From Eubacteriales bacterium (GTDB lineage: Bacteria; Bacillota; Clostridia; Oscillospirales; CAG-272), in contig JAZSPB010000076.1 in NCBI GenBank assembly GCA_045537235.1, forward strand, positions 41-64,040: 64,000 nt of DNA, in the 5' to 3' direction. Positions within the stretch are counted from its first letter, which is position 1. Each line of letters starts with the position of its first letter. Positions 7,924 through 56,945 of the stretch are shown one piece after another. A model generated the notes under the pieces. It was given only the letters and a program-made list of their open reading frames with translations, made no database searches and was not told the origin of the DNA. The position numbers were made by a program, and so were the translations under genes.

Positions 7924-7934
7924 ACCGCCGCCTG

Positions 7935-8117
7935 CGGGCGGGGAGGTCGCTTTTTTGAAAAAAAGCTCCGCAAAAAACTTTTGATCCGCGCCCTTTTTGT
8001 AGTTTGCGCGAACATAGCGAAACACCAAGGGGTGCAGTATGTTCGCTCAAACTTTGGCAAGGGCGCGGAACAAAAGTTTTTGCGGAGCTTTTTTCAAAAA
8101 GCGACCTCCCTCGCCCG
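7935..8117. repeat. Long palindromic intergenic repeat, copy A (fullest copy)
   Basis: GGGAGGTCGCTTTTTTGAAAAAAAGCTCCGCAAAAAACTTTTG ... CAAAAGTTTTTGCGGAGCTTTTTTCAAAAAGCGACCTCCC; nearly the whole ~180 bp can pair. Confidence 0.9.
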
Positions 8118-12803: not shown

Positions 12804-13579
12804 ACGGAACAGAAGGGAACGAAGAAAACATAATGCAATCCGACGAAAAATATGCCAAGAACCGCGAACTGATTCAAGCGGCACAAAGTGAGGACGAGCA
12901 GGTCGCGACATCCGCAACAGAAGCTCTTTTAGATATCAATATGGGCTTGGTGCGAAGTCTTGCCTTCCGTTTTCGGGATCGGGGAACCGAACTGGAGGAT
13001 CTGATCCAGATCGGAATCATAGGTATGATCAAGGCCATACGCAGCTTTGATCTTTCGCGGGAAACTACGTTTTCCACCTATGCGGTCCCCCTTATCATAG
13101 GAGAGATCCGTCGGCATTTGCGAGATGACGGTCTTATTAAGGTCAGCCGATACCATCGAAAGTTGGGACTGGAGCTGATGAATGCCAGAAATCGAATCGT
13201 CTCCCAGCGAGGTTATGAGCCGGGAATCGAAGAATTGGCGGCATTGTGCGAAGTCTCACCGGAGGATGCGGCGATCGCCATAGATGCCATTTCCCCCGTA
13301 GCTTCTCTTTCGGAGGTGGTTGGCGGCGATGACAGCAATCTAACTTTGGAAAGCCGTATTGCCGATGACGACAATGAGATCGAACGGATTTCAGACAGCA
13401 TCGCGCTCCGACAAGCCATTTCCCATATGCCGGAGATGTGGAAAAAAATATTGCTTCTTCGCTATTATCGAAATCTGACACAGCAGGAGACCGCCGAGCG
13501 CTTGGGGTTATCTCAAGTGAAGGTGTCGCGTGAGGAAAAAAAGATCATGGCTTTTCTGCGAGGAGAACTTGTAGGATAA
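12800..13579 (+). CDS. sigF: RNA polymerase sporulation sigma factor F
   Basis: EDLIQIG, FSTYAVPLIIGEIRR and SQVKVSR motifs; follows spoIIAB. Confidence 0.93.
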   Translation: MNGTEGNEENIMQSDEKYAKNRELIQAAQSEDEQVATSATEALLDINMGLVRSLAFRFRDRGTELEDLIQIGIIGMIKAIRSFDLSRETTFSTYAVPLIIGEIRRHLRDDGLIKVSRYHRKLGLELMNARNRIVSQRGYEPGIEELAALCEVSPEDAAIAIDAISPVASLSEVVGGDDSNLTLESRIADDDNEIERISDSIALRQAISHMPEMWKKILLLRYYRNLTQQETAERLGLSQVKVSREEKKIMAFLRGELVG

Positions 13580-48145: not shown

Positions 48146-48173
48146 AACCGATTTTTCATAAAAGCATATGCTA
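48146..48173 (+). promoter_or_regulatory. Possible mother-cell (sigmaK/sigmaE-type) promoter of the split GH18 gene
   Basis: -10 CATATGCTA (48165-48173) with AACC 15 bp upstream; alternative GAATAAA-N13-CATAAAAG just upstream. Confidence 0.45.
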
Positions 48174-48204: not shown

Positions 48205-49052
48205 ATGGTCATTTATACAGTGAAAAACGGAGATTCGCTATACAACATCGCAAGAGCTTATGGAACCACGCCCGATCGAGTCGTTGCAGATAACGATCTG
48301 AAGGATCCCTCAAAACTTGTCGTCGGTCAGACATTGGTTATCCAACAGCCGCTGGTATCCTACCGCGTACGGAGCGGAGACACGGTATATTCGATCTCCC
48401 AACAGTTTGGCGTCAGCCTGAATCAGCTTTATCGCAACAATCCCGTCCTTATGGGAGGAAATAATCTTGTTGTAGGGCAGTCGCTCAACATTGTTCTCCC
48501 TCAAGTACAAAACGACCGCGAGATCGAGGTCAACGGTTATGTATATCCTTCTGTCAGCCGCGAAACACTCATGCGCACCTTGCCGTATCTTACTTATATT
48601 ACGGTTTTTACTTATCGAATTGGAGAAGACGGAACTTTAGAGGACGTTGATGACGAGGAGATCATAGAAATGGCGCGGCAATACGGGGTAGCGCCCATTA
48701 TGCAGATTTCATCGGTTACCGAACGGGGAACCTTTTCCTCCGAAATTGCGGCGCGAATCTTGTCGGACGAAGCATTGCAAGACACGATCATTGAAAATGT
48801 TTTGGCGGTTTTGAGTGAAAAACGGTATGTGGGCGTTGATGTGGATTTTGAATATGTGGAAGGGCAATATGCGGATGCCTATGTGACCTTTCTCGAAAAA
48901 TTACACGCGCGATTGAGTTCCGAGGGATATCAACTGTTTGTCGCTCTTGCCCCAAAATACAATGCCGACCAAGAAGGGCTGCTATACGAAGGGCACGATT
49001 ACGCAGGTGCTGGTGCAGCCGCGGACGGTGTGACACTGATGACGTATGAATG
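48205..49052 (+). CDS. 5' half of an interrupted LysM2-GH18 spore hydrolase (YdhD/YaaH-SleL family)
   Basis: Two LysM repeats, EVNGYVYP, catalytic DVDFE, LLYEGHDY; family similarity stops at LMTYE and the frame runs ~19 unrelated codons to a stop at 49110. Confidence 0.92.
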
Positions 49053-49075
49053 TGTCATTTTTTCTTGCAAGATTC
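49039..49075 (+). other. attL recombination site
   Basis: ATGACG-TATGAATG-T-GTCATTTTTTCT; element-side arm 49054-49065 is the reverse complement of 56474-56485. Confidence 0.88.
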
Positions 49076-49118
49076 AAAAATATAATGCCGAATCTTATAA
49101 ATGCGTATGAGAATTCAG

Positions 49119-50618
49119 TTACAGACGGGGGAAAAGATCAATGGTTACGGCACGGGTTTGGCTGTCTTTGCGATAGGTGAGCTTGGCGAGAATTTCTTTG
49201 TACATATGGTGCTTTTCTTCAGCGGACAGCGTATCATAGGTGTCGAACAGATGTTGGATCTTGGGCTTGAAAACAGTATTCGGTGTGAGATTCTTTTCGC
49301 TCGCTTGAAGTTGCTTTTCCATCGCGTCTCTTTGGACACGATACTCTTCCAACCGAGTCTCAATGACAGCGCGGCGAGATATAAATGTGGGAATGTCATA
49401 GACACCTTGTTCAAGAAAGTCAAGTGCTTTTTGGAGTTGGAGTCGAAGTTTTTGGGTTTTGCTGTCGATATGGAAAAGCGCCTTCCGGACGAGAGTTGTT
49501 TCGGTCGCGCAGGGTGAATTTTGAAGATTGGCATAACAACGCATTCGGGAGAGCAGGGAATCCTTGACAGCCTTTTCCATGATGAAAAAGAGGGATGACA
49601 TCACATGACAATTTCGGTCAGAGCACATAATACGGCGCTCCTTTCCCGAGGAAGCACCTGTCATTTTGGCACCGCATTCCGCGCAATAGGCAATGCCGGA
49701 GAATACATTGTAGAATTGATGACCGCGAGCGGTCTGGTTGGTGCGGTTGACCGATCGAACATAACAGGCTTTTTCAAAAGTGTCATCATCGATGATGGCG
49801 GGGTGCCGACCTTCATAAACGGGGCAGTCGAAGTCATAATGACGGGATTTCACAACGGAGCCGTCTACCAGTTTTTTATTGGTTTTTTTATAGGAACAGC
49901 GGATCTTTCCTGTGTAGACAATATTGCGAAGAATAGTCGAAACAACGACCGGACTCCACGGAACACCGGTTCGCGAGGGAATGTGAAGCTCATTGAGGTG
50001 CTCCGCAAGACGGGTGAAGCCGAGACCTTGTTCAATATAGATATGAAACATATATTTGACCGTTTCCGCTTCTTCGGGATCGATTTCAAGGGTGTTTCCT
50101 TTATCGCCTTTGATTTTGGCGATCCGATATCCAAAAGGGGCTACACTTCCCATAAACCGTCCCTCGGCGGCGGAGCGTTTTCTTCCTCGCTCAAGGCGGC
50201 GATTGATGAGCATATATTCTTTGCGCGACATGAAGAGATTAAATTCAAAAAATTCTTCATCATATTCATTGGCGGGATCGTAGGTCTTGTAGGGGGTGAT
50301 GATTTTTGTGTTGGTGTATTTGAAGGTTTGCGTGATGATCCCCTGATCGATGGAGTTGCCGCGGGAGAGGCGGTCAGGATCCACACAAAGAACACCTTCG
50401 ACCTCGCCCATCTCAACGAGGCGAAGGAGCTTTTGCATTTCGGGACGTTCGATCAAAGATTCGCCGGAGACGACTTCTTCAAAAGAACGGGCGATGGTGA
50501 TACCTTGAGAGCTTGCGAAGGATTCCAGGAGAATACGGTGCCGTTTCAGTGTTTCTTCCACGGACAGTTCGTTATAGTCGCGGTCATAGCGGGATTTTCG
50601 AATGTAAGATATGTACAT
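49119..50618 (-). CDS. Large serine recombinase (SpoIVCA-like, 499 aa)
   Basis: YIRKSR catalytic motif, EEVVSGES, DPDRLSRG, APFGY recombinase domain, CAECG...CSDRNC zinc ribbon and coiled coil; AAGGAG RBS. Confidence 0.95.
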   Translation of the reverse strand: MYISYIRKSRYDRDYNELSVEETLKRHRILLESFASSQGITIARSFEEVVSGESLIERPEMQKLLRLVEMGEVEGVLCVDPDRLSRGNSIDQGIITQTFKYTNTKIITPYKTYDPANEYDEEFFEFNLFMSRKEYMLINRRLERGRKRSAAEGRFMGSVAPFGYRIAKIKGDKGNTLEIDPEEAETVKYMFHIYIEQGLGFTRLAEHLNELHIPSRTGVPWSPVVVSTILRNIVYTGKIRCSYKKTNKKLVDGSVVKSRHYDFDCPVYEGRHPAIIDDDTFEKACYVRSVNRTNQTARGHQFYNVFSGIAYCAECGAKMTGASSGKERRIMCSDRNCHVMSSLFFIMEKAVKDSLLSRMRCYANLQNSPCATETTLVRKALFHIDSKTQKLRLQLQKALDFLEQGVYDIPTFISRRAVIETRLEEYRVQRDAMEKQLQASEKNLTPNTVFKPKIQHLFDTYDTLSAEEKHHMYKEILAKLTYRKDSQTRAVTIDLFPRL

Positions 50619-50662
50619 AAAGACTCCTTTCGTGGTTAACGACGGGAAGGGAATTCTTTTTG

Positions 50663-50691
50663 ATTTTATGTGGGCAAAATAAGAGATATGT
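50663..50691 (-). promoter_or_regulatory. Putative sigmaE promoter of the recombinase
   Basis: Minus strand ACATATC-N14-CATAAAAT, about 45 bp upstream of the ATG. Confidence 0.7.
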
Positions 50692-50820
50692 TTGGCGGAT
50701 TGATCTTTCATGATTGGAACAGATCGCGACAAAGACCGCGTTGAAGCATTTGAATGGATAAGTCCCGAAAGGAAAGAAATTCTTTTTCAGAACATAGGAT
50801 TTAGAGAAAGGAGTGATGAT

Positions 50821-51003
50821 ATGGCAGTGGTAACGATCTACCGTTATGAGGAGTTGAATGTGACGGTTTTGATTCACGATGATGAAATGCTGTCCGAAAA
50901 GGAACGTCGAGAGGTGGTGGAGCGGCTGTTTCGTTATGAGGAGGAGGCTTGTGCTCGGACGCATTGTCGAGATGGGCAGAAAGAGGGTGAAGGACGATCA
51001 TAG
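50821..51003 (+). CDS. Small 60-aa protein divergent from the recombinase; candidate recombination directionality factor
   Basis: Strong RBS AGAAAGGAG; CATAGGAT -10-like box at 50793-50800; MAVVTIYRY...VLIHDD resembles small clostridial prophage proteins. Confidence 0.65.
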   Translation: MAVVTIYRYEELNVTVLIHDDEMLSEKERREVVERLFRYEEEACARTHCRDGQKEGEGRS

Positions 51004-51140
51004 AGGGATGGCTTACAGATAAGTTTCTTATTATACAAACAACAGTTGAATTCGAAACAACCGAGTGATAAAAAATATGTAGGTGAATTTCTCTTGAAAA
51101 CGGCAAGGAAAAGTTGTGTGGAAAGGATGCGACATAAAAT

Positions 51141-51168
51141 TTTAGCCCCGCTTTTGGCGGGGCTTTTT
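51141..51168. terminator. Terminator hairpin between convergent genes
   Basis: AGCCCCGC-TTTTG-GCGGGGCT followed by a T-tract. Confidence 0.75.
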
Positions 51169-51169
51169 A

Positions 51170-51877
51170 CTAAAAAAAGAATAGGGAACCTACATCATAA
51201 AGTCCCTCATCCGAGAGGGAGATGACATCAAACCCGTGAGCGGAACAAAACGATAAAATGTTTTTTCCGTCGGGATGTGTCAAAATGTCGCCACAGAAAA
51301 ACACAGTATGATTGCAAACACCCGAGGCACCGCCGATAAAGCCGTGGTCGAAGCCGTCAAGCGCAACGTGTCCTTCGGAGATGCGCAACACATTGATCGA
51401 AAGTGCACGGCACGTCTTTTCCATCGCGGGATCGGCGGTAATGACGGCTTTGTCCCCGAGCGTTACGGTGGAGCATTTTGCATATCCTTGGTTGGTGTTG
51501 AATATTGAGATCCCATGTTCCTCTGCATAAAGCTGTACTGCTTTAGCCATGTTGGTGCGCCGTCCTATGACATGGTTGCCAAGGATCGCGAGATTGAGGG
51601 AGACATCGCATGGATATTCAGCGCCTACCGCATCGTCGGTCAGCGTCAGCGAAAGGGAAGTCGCGTTAATTATTCGGTCGATTGTTTCTTTGGCCTCGGT
51701 ATAATATTTTTTGTGAACAAACATTCGGTCACCAAGAGGAAGGATCAGCATATCGGGATGGGATGCCACTCTTGGATCAAATGTCGAAAACGGGGGCAGA
51801 GAAATAATAGAAAAGCCTCGCGTTAAAAGCGTCGTGCGACATTTTTCCGAAATTCGGATATCGGTTACAGCAAGCAT
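51170..51877 (-). CDS. DUF6873-like (GME-fold) protein
   Basis: SHPDM, YPCDV, QGYAKCS, HGFIGGASG and LYDVGS motifs; GGAGG RBS. Confidence 0.75.
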   Translation of the reverse strand: MLAVTDIRISEKCRTTLLTRGFSIISLPPFSTFDPRVASHPDMLILPLGDRMFVHKKYYTEAKETIDRIINATSLSLTLTDDAVGAEYPCDVSLNLAILGNHVIGRRTNMAKAVQLYAEEHGISIFNTNQGYAKCSTVTLGDKAVITADPAMEKTCRALSINVLRISEGHVALDGFDHGFIGGASGVCNHTVFFCGDILTHPDGKNILSFCSAHGFDVISLSDEGLYDVGSLFFF

Positions 51878-51902
51878 AATACCTCCAAAAGTGTGCGCCT
51901 GT

Positions 51903-52086
51903 GGGCGAGGGAGGTCGCTTTTTTGAAAAAAAGCTCCGCAAAAAACTTTTGATCTACGCTCTTTTTTGGGGTTGCGCGAACATAGTGAGACACCGGTTGC
52001 TCAAACATCAGCAGGGGCGAGGAGCAAAAGTTTTTGTGCGCTTTTGAAGAAAGTGTGCTTTTTTCAAAAAGTGACCTATCCCGTCC
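51903..52086. repeat. Long palindromic intergenic repeat, copy E (inside the element)
   Basis: GGGAGGTCGCTTTTTTGAAAAAAAGCTCCGCAAAAAACTTTTGATC identical to the left arm of copy A; right arm degenerate. Confidence 0.88.
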
Positions 52087-52149
52087 ACAGGCGAACAAAA
52101 ATAAAGCCGGCAGACATGAACGACTGCCGGAAACTTTATGACCGCACAA

Positions 52150-52335
52150 TTAAGCGCGGGTGATCTTGCCCGAACGCAGGCAACGGGAACAAACGGCAAC
52201 GGTCGTAGGGGTACCGTCAACGATTGCCTTTACCTTACGAATGTTGGGCTTCCAACATCTGTTGGTCTTGCGGTGGGAGTGGGAAACGTTCTGTCCGAAG
52301 ACAACGCCCTTTCCACAAATGCTGCACTTTGCCAT
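52150..52335 (-). CDS. rpmB: 50S ribosomal protein L28 (zinc-binding form)
   Basis: MAKCSICGK...VSHSHRKTNRCWKPNI...CSRCLRSG; AGGAGG RBS. Confidence 0.97.
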   Translation of the reverse strand: MAKCSICGKGVVFGQNVSHSHRKTNRCWKPNIRKVKAIVDGTPTTVAVCSRCLRSGKITRA

Positions 52336-52400
52336 TTTGACACCTCCTGTATGCGGCTTCACGCATTGATGCGAGTTGAACTCATTACATAACGAGATAT

Positions 52401-52429
52401 ATTATACCATAACCGAGGGGAAAATGCAA
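52401..52429 (-). promoter_or_regulatory. sigmaA promoter of rpmB
   Basis: Minus strand TTGCAT-N17-TATAAT with extended -10 TG. Confidence 0.75.
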
Positions 52430-52450
52430 TAGTTTTTTGAAAATTTTTTC

Positions 52451-53761
52451 TCACAAAATGGATTTTTCTTTCTTTTTTTCAATGCAGGGGACGGATTTTT
52501 GACCGTAGACCGCTCCCGAGCCTTGTGCTGACTCAATGCGGAGCAGACGATTGTACTTGGCTACGCGCTCGCTTCTGCAAGGTGCTCCCGATTTGATATA
52601 GGGGGCATTTACCGCGACGGCGATATCCGCCAGTGTTGTGTCTTCCGTCTCGCCGGAGCGATGGGAGAGAATAAAGCCGTAATGGGCATCCTTCGCCGAG
52701 TGGATGACATTCAAGGTCTCGCTGAGTGTGCCGATCTGATTGGGTTTGATGAGAATAGCATTTCCCATGGCTTCTCGAATTCCCTTGGCAAGACGGGAAA
52801 CATTGGTCACAAACAGGTCATCTCCCACCAGCATGATTCGCTTTCCGAGACGCTCGGTCATCTTTTTCCACGCATCAAAATCTTCTTCGCCAAGACCGTC
52901 TTCGATGGATATGATGGGGTAACGGTCGACATATCGTTCGTAGGTGGCGATCAGTTCATCGGCGCTTTTTACTTCGTCTCGTTTGAACATATGATATTTT
53001 CCGTCCTCGCGATACCAACCGCTGGCTGCCACATCCAACGCGATCTTGACTTCGTCGGTGGTGTAACCGGATTTCTCAATGGCGCGACAGATCAGCTCAA
53101 TGGCTTCTTCGTCCGATTCCAAGTCAGGGGCATAGCCGCCTTCATCTCCCACAGTGGCGGTTCTTCTCATTCCTTTTAGGATATTTCCAAGTGTGTGATA
53201 GATCTCGCTTCCCATACGAAGACCTTCCGAAAAGCTTTCCGCGCCAACGGGCAAGATCATGAACTCCTGAATTTCCACATTGTTAGCCGCATGAGCGCCA
53301 CCGTTGAGAATGTTCATCATGGGAACGGGAATGCGGTATGCGTCAATGCCTCCGAGGTAGCGATAAAGGGGAATGCCGTAATGATTGGCAGCAGCGCGTG
53401 CATTTGCCATGGAAACCGCCAGAATGGCATTGGCACCTAAACGGGACTTATTTTCGGTGCCGTCCAGTTCACAAAGGATACGGTCAAGTTCATGCTGTTC
53501 ACAAGCATTGATGCCCGAAATGGCGGGAGAAATAACTTTACAGACGTTGTAAACCGCCTTCATAACACTTTTTCCGTGATAATAGGCGGCGTCTGCATCC
53601 CGTTTTTCGTGGGCTTCAAATTTGCCGGTCGAGGCGCCCGATGGAACGCTGGCCACTCCCACAGTTCCGTCATTTAGAAAAACCGTGGCCTCCACCGTGG
53701 GATTGCCTCGCGAGTCAAGGATCTCCCGCGCGCAACATTTAACAATTTGAGGTTTGCTCAT
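52451..53761 (-). CDS. eno: Enolase
   Basis: [48 protein letters not shown] and SHRSGET all present. Confidence 0.96.
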
Positions 53762-53924
53762 TTTATTTGCTTCCTTTCTTTTTCTCTACCGTTATTATTG
53801 GCAATTGAGGGGATTTTATTCTGCTTGCTGAAATATGAATGTTGGGCTTTTAAAGGGCAGAGCGAAAAGGACCTGGGGATATCCTCAACGGATTCTTTGC
53901 TTGCATTGAATTCGTCTTTGGGGG

Positions 53925-53953
53925 TTGACAATGATAATAAAGTGGGCTATACT
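53925..53953 (+). promoter_or_regulatory. Internal sigmaA promoter
   Basis: TTGACA-N17-TATACT embedded in the polyvalent reading frame. Confidence 0.65.
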
Positions 53954-54290
53954 GAATATGCCAAAAAGAAAAGGAAAAAAGTATATCGAGGCGGTGTAAT
54001 CATTCGTCGCGGCAAGGTGGTAAGTAACGGCAAGCGAACACAGACGGACTCCTTGATCGATAATGTTTTTCCTCCATATGACCCCTTTGTTAAGCACGGA
54101 AGTGAAGCGCATCGTTTGGCATTGGATTGGGCCTATAAGGCAGATACCAAGGCAGGGGACATGACTTTGATCTCGTATCATGACAGGTGGTATTTGGTTC
54201 AGAAATTCGATGATGCAGATTCAAAGTATTTAATTCGTCGCCGTGTTTTGAAGGCGGAATTTGAGAAAGTAAGCAAGGAGATTGAAGAAA

Positions 54291-54548
54291 ATGGAAAGAG
54301 CGGAGATATCAGCTCCATACAAAGAAGACTTACTCGGAATGATAAACGCAATAAATCGGGTTATTCCTTTAAGGAAAGAGAATCAAGTGTTGATCGTGAT
54401 GTTATTGAACACAGACGAGAAGGTCAATCAGTGGTTCGAATGGTTACGACCGAGAGTGACGGGCGAGAACGATCTGGACGCGACGGAGGCGGAGATCGTG
54501 AGGGCAGCGGTCAGGATAGACAATGGGAAGGATCCGAACGAGAGCTAA
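54291..54548 (+). CDS. Nested out-of-frame 85-aa protein inside the polyvalent ORF
   Basis: AAGGAG RBS at 54275-54280; amphipathic helical sequence while the host frame becomes R/G/E/S-rich low complexity. Confidence 0.6.
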   Translation: MERAEISAPYKEDLLGMINAINRVIPLRKENQVLIVMLLNTDEKVNQWFEWLRPRVTGENDLDATEAEIVRAAVRIDNGKDPNES

Positions 54549-55521
54549 CCCAAGAAGATCGTGAGGCATATGCGGCGTTTACAAGTGAACTTGGGGCGCA
54601 TATGTCGGAGGCTATTCTTGGCAATGAGGATTTTATTGACCGTGTGGTGCGCTCCGATGCTTCACTGACCGAGAAGGTGATCGGGAAGATCAGAAGCTTG
54701 AAGGAAGCCTTTGCTCGCATTGGAGATGCTGAGGCGCAGGCACAGCATAAGAGGTTGGTCGAGGCTGAAAAGCGGTATCTTAAGGCCATCAAGGCGGCGG
54801 GGTATCAGTATCGAGGCGGTAAGGTTTTGGTGTCGGAGGAGGAAAAAGAAAACACCGCGGAGGGCGGTGTCATTCAAGAGGCGGATCGTGTAAAATATTC
54901 TTTGAAAATCAAGCATACAGACGGCTCGATAGAAGAGTTGGCAGATGCAAGAAGTCTGACTGAGGAACAAGCTAAAAATTATCTCAAGCAAGCCAAGACC
55001 GGTGCTTTGCAAGGCCATACGTATATACCTGTTAGAAAAGACACACCACAAGTAATTATTGACACACTCAAACAAGTCAATGAGAATGTGGATGACTATT
55101 CTTTGGTGATGCAAGTAGGAAAGGCCAGACAGGCAATGTCTACAGAGAAATCAGGCAGTCGCAGACAAAAGCGAGGAAACAATGTCAGAAAACATGGATT
55201 GGGTCCCAAGGAGATAGTGACTATTATGAGTTGCCTTGACGATCCTACTGCGATAATATATCAAACCAATCGTGTAGACAAAAGTGGCAAAGATCTTCCC
55301 AATAATGTTGCAGTGGTTGTGGAGTATTCTGTAAGCGGTAACGAAAGCATTGCCGTGATAGAATTCGATAGTTCTATTCCGGCAGAAACAATCGGATTAG
55401 AGCAGGGGGATACAAGATATCATACGGTTGTTACGGTATTTGAGCCGGACACAATGCGAGATGATGTGGCGTTTGATTATGTGTCTGAATTGTTGTCTAA
55501 CCCCAACAACATTCTTTTGAC

Positions 55522-55594
55522 AATAGAAAGAGGACAACCCGCAAGAAGTGCCACCCGGGAGAAACATCCCAACACTTCAAGCAAACTGCCCTCT
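55522..55594 (-). ncRNA. Candidate antisense hairpin sRNA
   Basis: Minus-strand TTGACA-N16-TATAAT (55601-55628); 14-bp and 8-bp stems whose mismatches are all G-U pairs on the minus strand. Confidence 0.45.
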
Positions 55595-56080
55595 AATCCT
55601 ATTATATCCAAAAATTCAGAAATGTCAACCCCAAAACCGAAATTTTCTTTGAAGGAAAAAGGAGAGCGGGGCGAAAACAAAAAGTCCAATTCTTATACCA
55701 AAGAAGAAGCACGCGCCATGGTAGATAAGATCATGGAGGTGTTTGTGGGAGAGGGATATCATGGCAAACTTCCGGGCAAGAGAACCGAGGCGATTGATCG
55801 GGCACATATGATATTGAATAGCGCAGAGCCCGGAAAACGCGGAAGTGCGGCGTTGGATTTTGCGGATTATATTCTTCGTCATGCGGTGCTGGAGGATACG
55901 GTTGACGTGGATGAGGTTGCCCCCTATATGGAGAAGGTCGATCAGCTCAAGCCCTATTTGCGGCGATTGAATCTTGAGGAGCTTCGGGATGAAATTCGGC
56001 ATCATTATGATACTGACAGAAGTCTGCAATGGTGCTTGCCGGTGTTGAGGCGGTGAAAATGTATTATGAGTCGTTTAAGC

Positions 56081-56149
56081 AAAAAAACACGGGTCGTCAA
56101 GCCGCCGCGTCTGATTTAACAGAGGTCAACAAGCTCCATCGCCGTGTCG
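56081..56149 (-). ncRNA. Second candidate antisense hairpin sRNA
   Basis: Minus-strand TTGACA-N17-TACATT (56155-56183); ends pair (ACACGG/CCGTGT) and are followed by a U-tract. Confidence 0.4.
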
Positions 56150-56463
56150 TTTATAATGTATCAGAATTTCTTTCATTTGTCAAGAGCAAACTAAGGTACT
56201 TGTCATACGATATGCTTTTATTGGAACAAAAAAGTAAAAGAGAGACATTTTTCGAAACAATTCAATATATCGAATAGAAAAACGGCAAAAAATATATTGT
56301 AAATAATTGTATTCAAAAAGAGAATATTAACATGAAATGAGAAGCAATGGAGATGAGCGAAAAGCCGAGAAGAAACTTAAATTCTTTTGGGAAATTCGTT
56401 TGGGACCGTCAGAGGTGTAGAAGAATCGAGAGGGTATTCTCATAATTCCCGGGCAGTTGTTCC

Positions 56464-56494
56464 CGACCTTTTGAGAAAAAATGACCTATGAATG
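56464..56494 (+). other. attR recombination site
   Basis: AGAAAAAATGAC-C-TATGAATG then GGGATAT, resuming the WGY codons. Confidence 0.88.
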
Positions 56495-56945
56495 GGGATA
56501 TTCAAGAGGTGAACCGCAAGCGGTATCCCCGGTGGATAAAGTGCGTCGCGTAGTCGAGTACGGCGTGACGGAGATCCCTCCCGAAAAAATATTTTTGGGA
56601 ATGCCAAACTACGGTTATGATTGGCGGTTGCCCTTCGTAATGGGTGAAACGGTGGCGCGGTCACTTTCCAATGTGGAGGCGGTAGATCTTGCCAAGACCA
56701 ATCGCGCGGCAATTTTGTTTGACGAAGTAGCGCAGTCGCCGTATTTTAACTACTTTATAAGAGAGAACGGACGAAATACGGAGCACATCGTTTGGTTTGA
56801 AGATGCAAAAAGCGTAGCGGCAATGCTGGGGCTGGTCGAGGAGTTCGGTTTGCGCGGTTTCACCGTGTGGAATTTGATGCGTTACTTTCCTCAGTTGTGG
56901 CTTGTTCTCAATAACACCTTCCGCATCCGAAAAACACTTTCTTGA
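56487..56945 (+). CDS. 3' half of the interrupted LysM2-GH18 spore hydrolase
   Basis: YEWGYSRGEPQAVSP, EIPPEKIFLGMPNYGYDWRLP, AQSPYFNY, HIVWFEDAKS and FPQLWLVL continue the family sequence. Confidence 0.92.
   Translation, partial: YEWGYSRGEPQAVSPVDKVRRVVEYGVTEIPPEKIFLGMPNYGYDWRLPFVMGETVARSLSNVEAVDLAKTNRAAILFDEVAQSPYFNYFIRENGRNTEHIVWFEDAKSVAAMLGLVEEFGLRGFTVWNLMRYFPQLWLVLNNTFRIRKTLS

Follow-up and report, generated by a model that had tools for sequence, protein, structure and literature searches.

Introduction

When a segment that carries its own recombinase gene has come to interrupt a sporulation gene, can it still be removed from the chromosome, and what would its removal mean if some of the host's own housekeeping genes lie inside it? 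These questions are raised by a stretch of 64,000 nucleotides (hereafter the window, from whose first letter all positions are counted) of the genome of an uncultured Eubacteriales bacterium (Clostridia; Oscillospirales; CAG-272; GenBank assembly GCA_045537235.1, contig JAZSPB010000076.1, positions 41 to 64,040 of the forward strand). In this window, a SleL/YaaH-type GH18 gene, directly downstream of spoIVA, is found in two parts on either side of a segment of 7,442 bp (49053-56494), which holds a large serine recombinase gene and the host genes rpmB and eno. The reading favoured here, with a confidence slightly above even, is that this segment is an intervening element of the skin/SPbeta/gin type, lodged in the SleL/YaaH gene of a gut spore-former and excised at a central GA dinucleotide in the mother cell. 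The nature of its target, a SleL/YaaH sporulation gene beside spoIVA, points to such a skin/gin-like intervening element rather than to a generic prophage remnant. Both the element class and the target gene family are already known; what is unusual in this locus is the presence of native housekeeping genes, single-copy as far as found, within a segment predicted to be excisable.

Attachment sites at the element ends

The two ends of the segment share an 8-bp core, TATGAATG, present twice at a spacing of 7,442 bp, and they bear arms (AGAAAAAATGAC at the right end, GTCATTTTTTCT at the left end) that are exact reverse complements of each other over 12 bp, with no mismatch (coordinates in Table 1). 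Once the right end is joined to the left end by script, thereby rebuilding attP, the two arms frame a 10-bp spacer whose dyad centre is GA; pairing about this centre extends to 18 of 26 positions, and the next-best centre reaches 12. An initial annotation of the locus had described this perfect inverted repeat with its GA-centred spacer, which was reproduced here, together with a weaker distal A-x-CTT match, which is indeed present but pairs at just 4 of 10 positions, about what chance would give.

Could such a symmetry arise fortuitously? The same joining was applied to all identical 8-mer pairs lying 2-20 kb apart in the window, and a perfect inverted run of at least 12 bp was obtained for 3 of the 25,841 pairs, the element pair being one of them; the other two (runs of 18 and 23 bp) both use position 7949, inside a copy of the dispersed repeat considered in the last section. 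Given this control, the symmetric pairing of attP is not a matter of chance. The rebuilt attB, in contrast, is devoid of any comparable symmetry, its longest inverted run being 3, and an asymmetric attB is usual for large serine recombinases. Among the four half-sites, B, P and P' have ATGAC/GTCAT at an equal distance from the centre, as expected from a shared contact with a recombinase domain, and the GA dinucleotide, which is non-palindromic, lies within the core common to attL and attR.

A symmetric attP facing an asymmetric attB, a shared non-palindromic dinucleotide, and a recombinase with the appropriate domains and catalytic serine are all found at this locus, and the anatomy of the ends fits an attP/attB pair of a large serine recombinase with its crossover at GA. 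This interpretation, already put forward in the initial annotation, is well supported by site anatomy, whereas the cleavage position itself, at the central GA, is a prediction from that anatomy. Elements of this kind, which interrupt sporulation genes and restore them on excision, are an established developmental switch, and a symmetric attP centred on its crossover is expected of them; the original observation is in this respect sound but ordinary. The recombinase and its sites of about 50 bp would represent a previously uncharacterised attB/attP pair, for which a use as a tool is possible but generic, and sequence alone cannot rank this recombinase above many others for that purpose.

One more att-like site was encountered on another contig (C153, about 13165-13198), where 18/21 and 16/21 positions agree with the two attP half-site probes. 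It lies inside an uninterrupted open reading frame (ORF) of 338 aa and was treated as chance; it could be a pseudo-site.

The recombinase

The recombinase gene ends 67 bp from the left core, and its product combines the Pfam domains PF00239, PF07508 and PF13408 (Zn_ribbon_recom). The residues Y5, R7, S9 and R10, as well as the four cysteines of the zinc ribbon, are invariant across 36 homologues, and the gene is intact. The best solved relative of the protein is SprA/YokA of SPbeta (E 3.6e-42, residues 4-479). Nine clusters of the protein collection (P0002-P0010) are 60-69% identical to it, and the best relatives elsewhere reach 39% in species-representative genomes, 29% in metagenome contigs and 40% in 150 genomes of the family. 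The exact 21-nt sequences of both element ends gave 0 matches in the collection of species-representative genomes.

Four more large serine recombinase paralogues, 21-29% identical to this one, are found in the same genome (contigs C94, C97, C29 and C138; L003-L006). Their neighbours within 1.5 kb include a D5_N/primase-like gene, a Tox-REase-7 domain gene and a YhcG/DUF1016 nuclease gene, and no split sporulation gene was seen within that distance of any of the four.

The interrupted sporulation gene

In related genomes, the two parts of the gene are contiguous at Tyr-Glu-Trp codons in 15 of 15 orthologous loci (L008-L022; four other loci, L023-L026, were excluded from the attachment-site alignment, having at most 38% identity or LysM-only matches). 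The central GA is kept in all 15, where it opens the Glu codon of the motif MTYEWGY, and 13 of them have ATGAC ahead of the core. The intact orthologue of the nearest species (G007) matches over its full length the PDB entries 4s3j, annotated as 'cortical-lytic enzyme', and 4s3k, annotated as 'spore germination protein YaaH' (E 4.5e-81), which identifies the target as a SleL/YaaH-type spore peptidoglycan hydrolase.

Would excision restore this gene? The length of 7,442 bp is 2 modulo 3, matching the frame offset between the two gene parts, and removal of the segment rebuilds an open frame and the MTYEWGY motif, as in the 15 orthologues. When the element is integrated, the 5' part reads into it until a stop at 49110. 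At the other end, the P arm provides ATG-ACC (56481-56486), a mimic of the host Met-Thr codons ATG-ACG, and the integrated 3' fragment thereby begins with an in-frame Met-Thr-Tyr-Glu-Trp.

Both gene halves are free of stops and the DVDFE motif is kept. With G001 as the outgroup, 20 lineage-specific amino-acid changes are counted in the split gene, compared with 35 in the intact gene of G007, the corresponding numbers for spoIVA being 20 and 24; judged from these counts, the split gene seems to show no sign of relaxed constraint. The dN/dS ratio relative to G007, considered as a clock since insertion, was set aside as uninformative because dS is saturated.

A sigma-K-like promoter motif stands upstream of the gene. 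Its strict form (AC-N16-CATANNNTA), based on the consensus of the B. subtilis literature, has just 2 matches in the window over both strands, and similar cAC-N15-17-CATAT motifs are found upstream of the orthologues in G001 and in another congener, G002. The genome also has spo0A, above the curated cut-off, and two full-length sigma-E/K-type genes. Expression of the GH18 gene in the mother cell is presumed here from B. subtilis.

Native housekeeping genes inside the element

About one third of the element interior consists of native host DNA (DUF6873, rpmB and eno). In G007 and G001, spoIVA is followed by DUF6873-rpmB-eno on the opposite strand and then by the intact GH18 gene, and the same order is found in G002 as far as its contig reaches. 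Likewise, eno lies directly upstream of the intact GH18 gene, and divergent from it, in 7 of the 8 congeners having GH18, the contig of the eighth stopping at the gene start. In the genome studied here, the order is spoIVA, GH18 5' part, attL, recombinase, orphan ORF, DUF6873, rpmB, eno, polyvalent-protein gene, attR and GH18 3' part. The eno gene is 84.8% identical to its G007 orthologue and spoIVA 84.6%, and this divergence, similar to that of a chromosomal neighbour, indicates that the enclosed genes are the lineage's own copies.

How did they come to lie inside? Homology to the ancestral eno-GH18 spacer is now divided between two places, a stretch of about 43 nt that ends at 53804 having remained beside eno and another of about 40 nt, beginning at 48165, beside the GH18 start, and none of the three new junctions holds repeats that could explain a capture or a misassembly. 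A third att-like core, TGCTGAAATATGAATGT, which includes the 9-mer TATGAATGT of attL, stands 29 bp to the right of the breakpoint at 53805. Sites reaching at least 14/17 number just 3 in the 2.8-Mb genome over both strands, attL included, and such a site beside the breakpoint is therefore unlikely to be there by chance, bearing in mind that its position was noticed after the fact. GH18 or recombinase homology around this core does not extend beyond about 30 nt, and a possible GH18 remnant at 53762-54400 was rejected for that reason. The third core may be the scar of a recombinase event at a secondary site, or the internal junction of two fused elements. Each scheme tried for the path of the rearrangement requires at least two or three events.

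In G007, the spacer between eno and GH18 measures about 950 bp (L054 11585-12490), compared with 127 bp in two other congeners. AATGTCAATA is repeated several times within it and a CCGCGAATGGCGGGACCCCCGCAACGG-like hairpin occurs twice, as if this spacer had received a further insertion.

Table 1. Features of the split gene, of the intervening segment and of its contents (positions in the window)
Feature	Position	Strand	Remarks
Sigma-K-like promoter motif	48147..48173	+	AC-N16-CATATGCTA; 32 nt upstream of the GH18 start
SleL/YaaH-type gene, 5' part	48205..49052	+	2 LysM and first part of GH18, with DVDFE catalytic motif
attL	49037..49065	+	B arm with ATGAC 49039-49043; core TATGAATG 49045-49052; predicted crossover GA 49048-49049; P' arm GTCATTTTTTCT 49054-49065
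Large serine recombinase gene (499 aa)	49119..50618	-	Resolvase, Recombinase, zinc ribbon and coiled coil; AAGGAG ribosome-binding site upstream
Orphan ORF (97 aa)	50710..51003	+	Or 60 aa from ATG 50821 with GAAAGGAG ribosome-binding site; divergent from recombinase gene
Bidirectional terminator-like hairpin	51144..51164		Downstream of DUF6873
DUF6873 gene	51170..51877	-	Orthologues between spoIVA and rpmB in G007 and G001
Dispersed repeat copy (about 200 bp)	51895..52095		39-nt inverted ends (MITE-like); between DUF6873 and rpmB; absent there in G007
rpmB (ribosomal protein L28, 61 aa)	52150..52335	-	Sole copy found in the assembly
eno (enolase)	52451..53761	-	Sole copy found in the assembly
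Right-hand breakpoint of the enclosed host block	53804..53805		End of homology to the G007 eno-upstream region
Polyvalent-protein homologue (743-769 aa)	53825..56056	+	Start uncertain
Third att-like core	53826..53842	+	TGCTGAAATATGAATGT; 14/17 identical to attL 49037-49053, including 9-mer TATGAATGT
ORF (82 aa)	56029..56277	+	Overlaps the end of the polyvalent-protein gene in another frame
attR	56474..56494	+	P arm AGAAAAAATGAC 56474-56485; core TATGAATG 56487-56494; predicted crossover GA 56490-56491
SleL/YaaH-type gene, 3' part	56487..56945	+	Remainder of GH18

Proposed excision and its consequences

If the segment is an intervening element, the recombinase and a directionality factor would pair attL with attR, 2-nt staggered cuts would be made at the central GA, within the Glu codon of MTYEWGY, and rotation followed by religation would yield a chromosome with attB and a circle with attP. 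Excision would most likely take place in the terminally differentiated mother cell, in which the rebuilt gene would then be transcribed from the sigma-K-like promoter, and the forespore would retain the integrated copy. A rearrangement in this lineage has put the native neighbours DUF6873-rpmB-eno inside the element. The latter is no longer an ordinary mobile element, as all that is left of its own cargo is the recombinase, orphan ORFs and a polyvalent-protein gene that is probably broken.

Since the only rpmB and eno genes found lie inside the segment, a growing cell that lost the circle should die, and the element would in this way be locked into the germ line. It can be proposed tentatively, as a possible but doubtful extension, that the element was made incurable by enclosing the only rpmB and eno genes of its host, that its excision is tolerable only in the terminal mother cell, and that the att-like core near the breakpoint is the scar of a recombinase-mediated capture at a secondary site. 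If true, excision would transfer rpmB and eno, both core housekeeping genes, to a circle that does not replicate, and a route would be outlined by which serine-recombinase elements acquire chromosomal genes. It would also provide a simple path to the permanent fixation of a selfish element, and a case in which it can be tested whether essential genes are removed, in a programmed manner, from the chromosome of a terminal cell.

Comparison with known intervening elements

Recombinase elements have been described in several sporulation loci, including sigK, spsM, spoVFB, spoVR, gerE and yabG (PMC4191935, PMC5595907, PMC10747680, 10.1101/2021.11.22.469490). The class includes skin, SPbeta, vfbin, vrin, gin and yin. 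Of these, gin is a non-phage element in gerE of Bacillus cereus ATCC 10987, with the GirC recombinase and the GirX directionality factor (PMC5595907). As portrayed in that account, gin resembles the present element in being small and non-phage, in bearing a large serine recombinase inside a mother-cell sporulation gene, in having a short shared core within an inverted repeat (9 bp in gin, 8 bp here), and in its predicted cleavage at the central dinucleotide of a symmetric element site, with an asymmetric attB (PMC5595907). The two differ in their targets, a SleL/YaaH-type GH18 gene being hit here, in that a GirX-like factor was not identified here, and in that housekeeping genes are enclosed here; excision of the present element is, in addition, a prediction.

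SPbeta is an active phage of 134 kb, whereas the present element measures 7.4 kb and has no phage genes. They nevertheless share their recombinase type, SprA, which is found with SprB in SPbeta of Bacillus subtilis, being the closest solved relative, and for SPbeta, inserted in spsM, attL x attR excision is described as rebuilding a mother-cell gene (PMC4191935, PMC5499854). Recombinase-bearing elements whose excision as a circle restores a sporulation gene further include skin in sigK (SpoIVCA in B. subtilis, CD1231 and CD1234 in C. difficile; PMC5025042) and yin in yabG (PMC10747680), and in both, as here, the recombinase gene adjoins the 5' gene fragment. Those elements are prophage-like and, in the cited passages of these two papers, are not described with essential host genes; the recombinase gene of the present element also differs in being antiparallel to the split gene.

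The target itself has a precedent: citing Abe et al. 2013 (Mol Microbiol 90:415), 10.1101/2021.11.22.469490 names yaaH among the genes into which phages or transposons integrate. The same host gene family is thereby given as a recurrent target in spore-formers, the present case being in an uncultured gut lineage of Clostridia. A search of the open-access literature found no report of an intervening element enclosing essential or housekeeping genes, which is weak negative evidence and cannot show that none exists.

Independent sequences and alternative explanations

Four public runs were compared with the locus, as low-depth assembled contigs. The attR junction is bridged by contigs from two runs of different studies, one of them from sheep gut. 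A 1,620-nt contig of X1, the best-matching run, which may be the sample of origin, runs from eno into the polyvalent-protein gene across the junction at 53805, and an RNA-library contig from a third study covers 51063-51316. An RNA-library contig joining both gene parts was considered as an excision product and rejected, 14 of 35 adjacent bases being different; it was read as the intact gene of a relative.

To what extent do these data support an element that is still excised during sporulation? Several points weigh against it. The attachment sites are known from this one element, relatives of the recombinase at 60-69% identity being known as protein clusters, and the selection on these sites proposed in the initial annotation is not established. 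Between-species dS is saturated, and a recent insertion would look equally undecayed. The genome is a metagenome-assembled genome (187 contigs, 84% complete, 3% contamination), so that the 'only copy' of rpmB or eno means the only copy found. Among the contigs listed from other runs, just two internal junctions are directly bridged, and none bridges attL or the spoIVA-GH18 junction; a motif scan found no sporulation-type promoter motif near the recombinase gene or the small ORFs. The remaining objections also speak for the main rival, a serious but unlikely one, according to which the segment is an inert insertion that integrated once, lost the ability to excise and knocked out the hydrolase gene, with sites that are symmetric only because they are too young to have decayed. 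A directionality factor was not identified in the element, the sole positional candidate being without homologue; the excision product of this strain, either as an attB form or as a circular attP junction, was not seen among the contigs listed from the four public runs; and a GH18 orthologue was not found in 5 of 13 congeners, so that the gene may be dispensable. The enclosed essential genes would, moreover, make excision harmful to growing cells. An inert insertion is harder to reconcile with a recombinase that is full length and keeps all invariant catalytic and zinc-ribbon residues, with gene halves that are open and in which lineage-specific changes are less numerous than in G007, whose orthologue is intact (20 compared with 35), and with 12-bp arms that are still perfect despite a residence spanning the rearrangement, the insertion of the dispersed repeat and probable cargo decay.

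Could the element instead still be moving between cells? A still-mobile integrative element (satellite or mobilizable island), transferred via attP and targeting the MTYEW-coding sequence, would account for the conservation of attB from genus to genus, which is due to the conserved motif that it encodes, for the presence of polyvalent-protein homologues, such proteins being typical of conjugative elements and phages, and for the mobile-element contexts of the four other recombinase paralogues of the assembly. This is nevertheless very unlikely, as no replication, transfer, packaging or regulatory genes were found among the family matches of the element, no copy was found elsewhere (0 exact end matches, and recombinase relatives of at most 40% in the genomes and metagenome contigs searched), and the interior host genes diverge like their chromosomal neighbours. 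It is also highly improbable that the attachment sites are real and that the host genes between them are an artefact of metagenome-bin assembly. A bin of 187 contigs with 3% contamination, in which attL and the spoIVA-GH18 junction are unbridged by contigs from other runs, leaves some room for such an error, but the three novel junctions are without any repeat able to mislead an assembler, the X1 contig crosses 53805 (X1 being possibly the source sample), the RNA-library contig spans 51063-51316, and the sheep-gut contig spans attR. A domesticated intervening element, excised in the mother cell, is the reading retained here.

Other contents of the element

The initial annotation had referred to a decayed phage cargo, a description that is only partly right: no phage gene was found in the element by a PHROGs search, and the element-type cargo consists of a polyvalent-protein homologue and two orphan ORFs. 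ART-PolyVal and LPD3 domains are named for polyvalent proteins, which belong to mobile elements, and among the 22 homologues listed for its product, the protein itself not counted, 8 have a Pfam domain (PF18760 ART-PolyVal in 4, PF18798 LPD3 in 3 and PF15644 in 1). The gene is probably frameshifted or broken, and the 82-aa ORF, for which there is no family match, is possibly its frameshifted tail. A sigma-70-like promoter (53925-53953) lies inside its annotated 5' part, and a perfect 12/12 sigma-70-like promoter (TTGACA-16-TATAAT) is found antisense within the gene, on the minus strand (55601-55628). The other orphan ORF, next to the recombinase gene, has no family match and no homologue besides itself, and is a positional candidate only for the directionality factor. 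Regarding RNA genes, the window contains no tRNA gene and no match to an Rfam family.

A genome search with the dispersed repeat inserted between DUF6873 and rpmB gave 128 matches, of which about 40 measure 90-215 bp, with 71-90% identity. A putative relic of the P arm at 52058-52081, identical to the P arm of the element at 18/22 positions, was rejected, as it belongs to this multi-copy repeat, and the likeness was taken as a coincidence. In four gut metagenome runs, a 35-nt part of the repeat (51914-51949) is covered at depths between 125 and 1,310 and is flanked by many different sequences; the repeat is therefore widespread beyond this genome, and the depth spike seen in the comparison with public runs is due to this copy (51895-52095). 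Another copy is located at 7929-8092 in the window, and more are found on many contigs.

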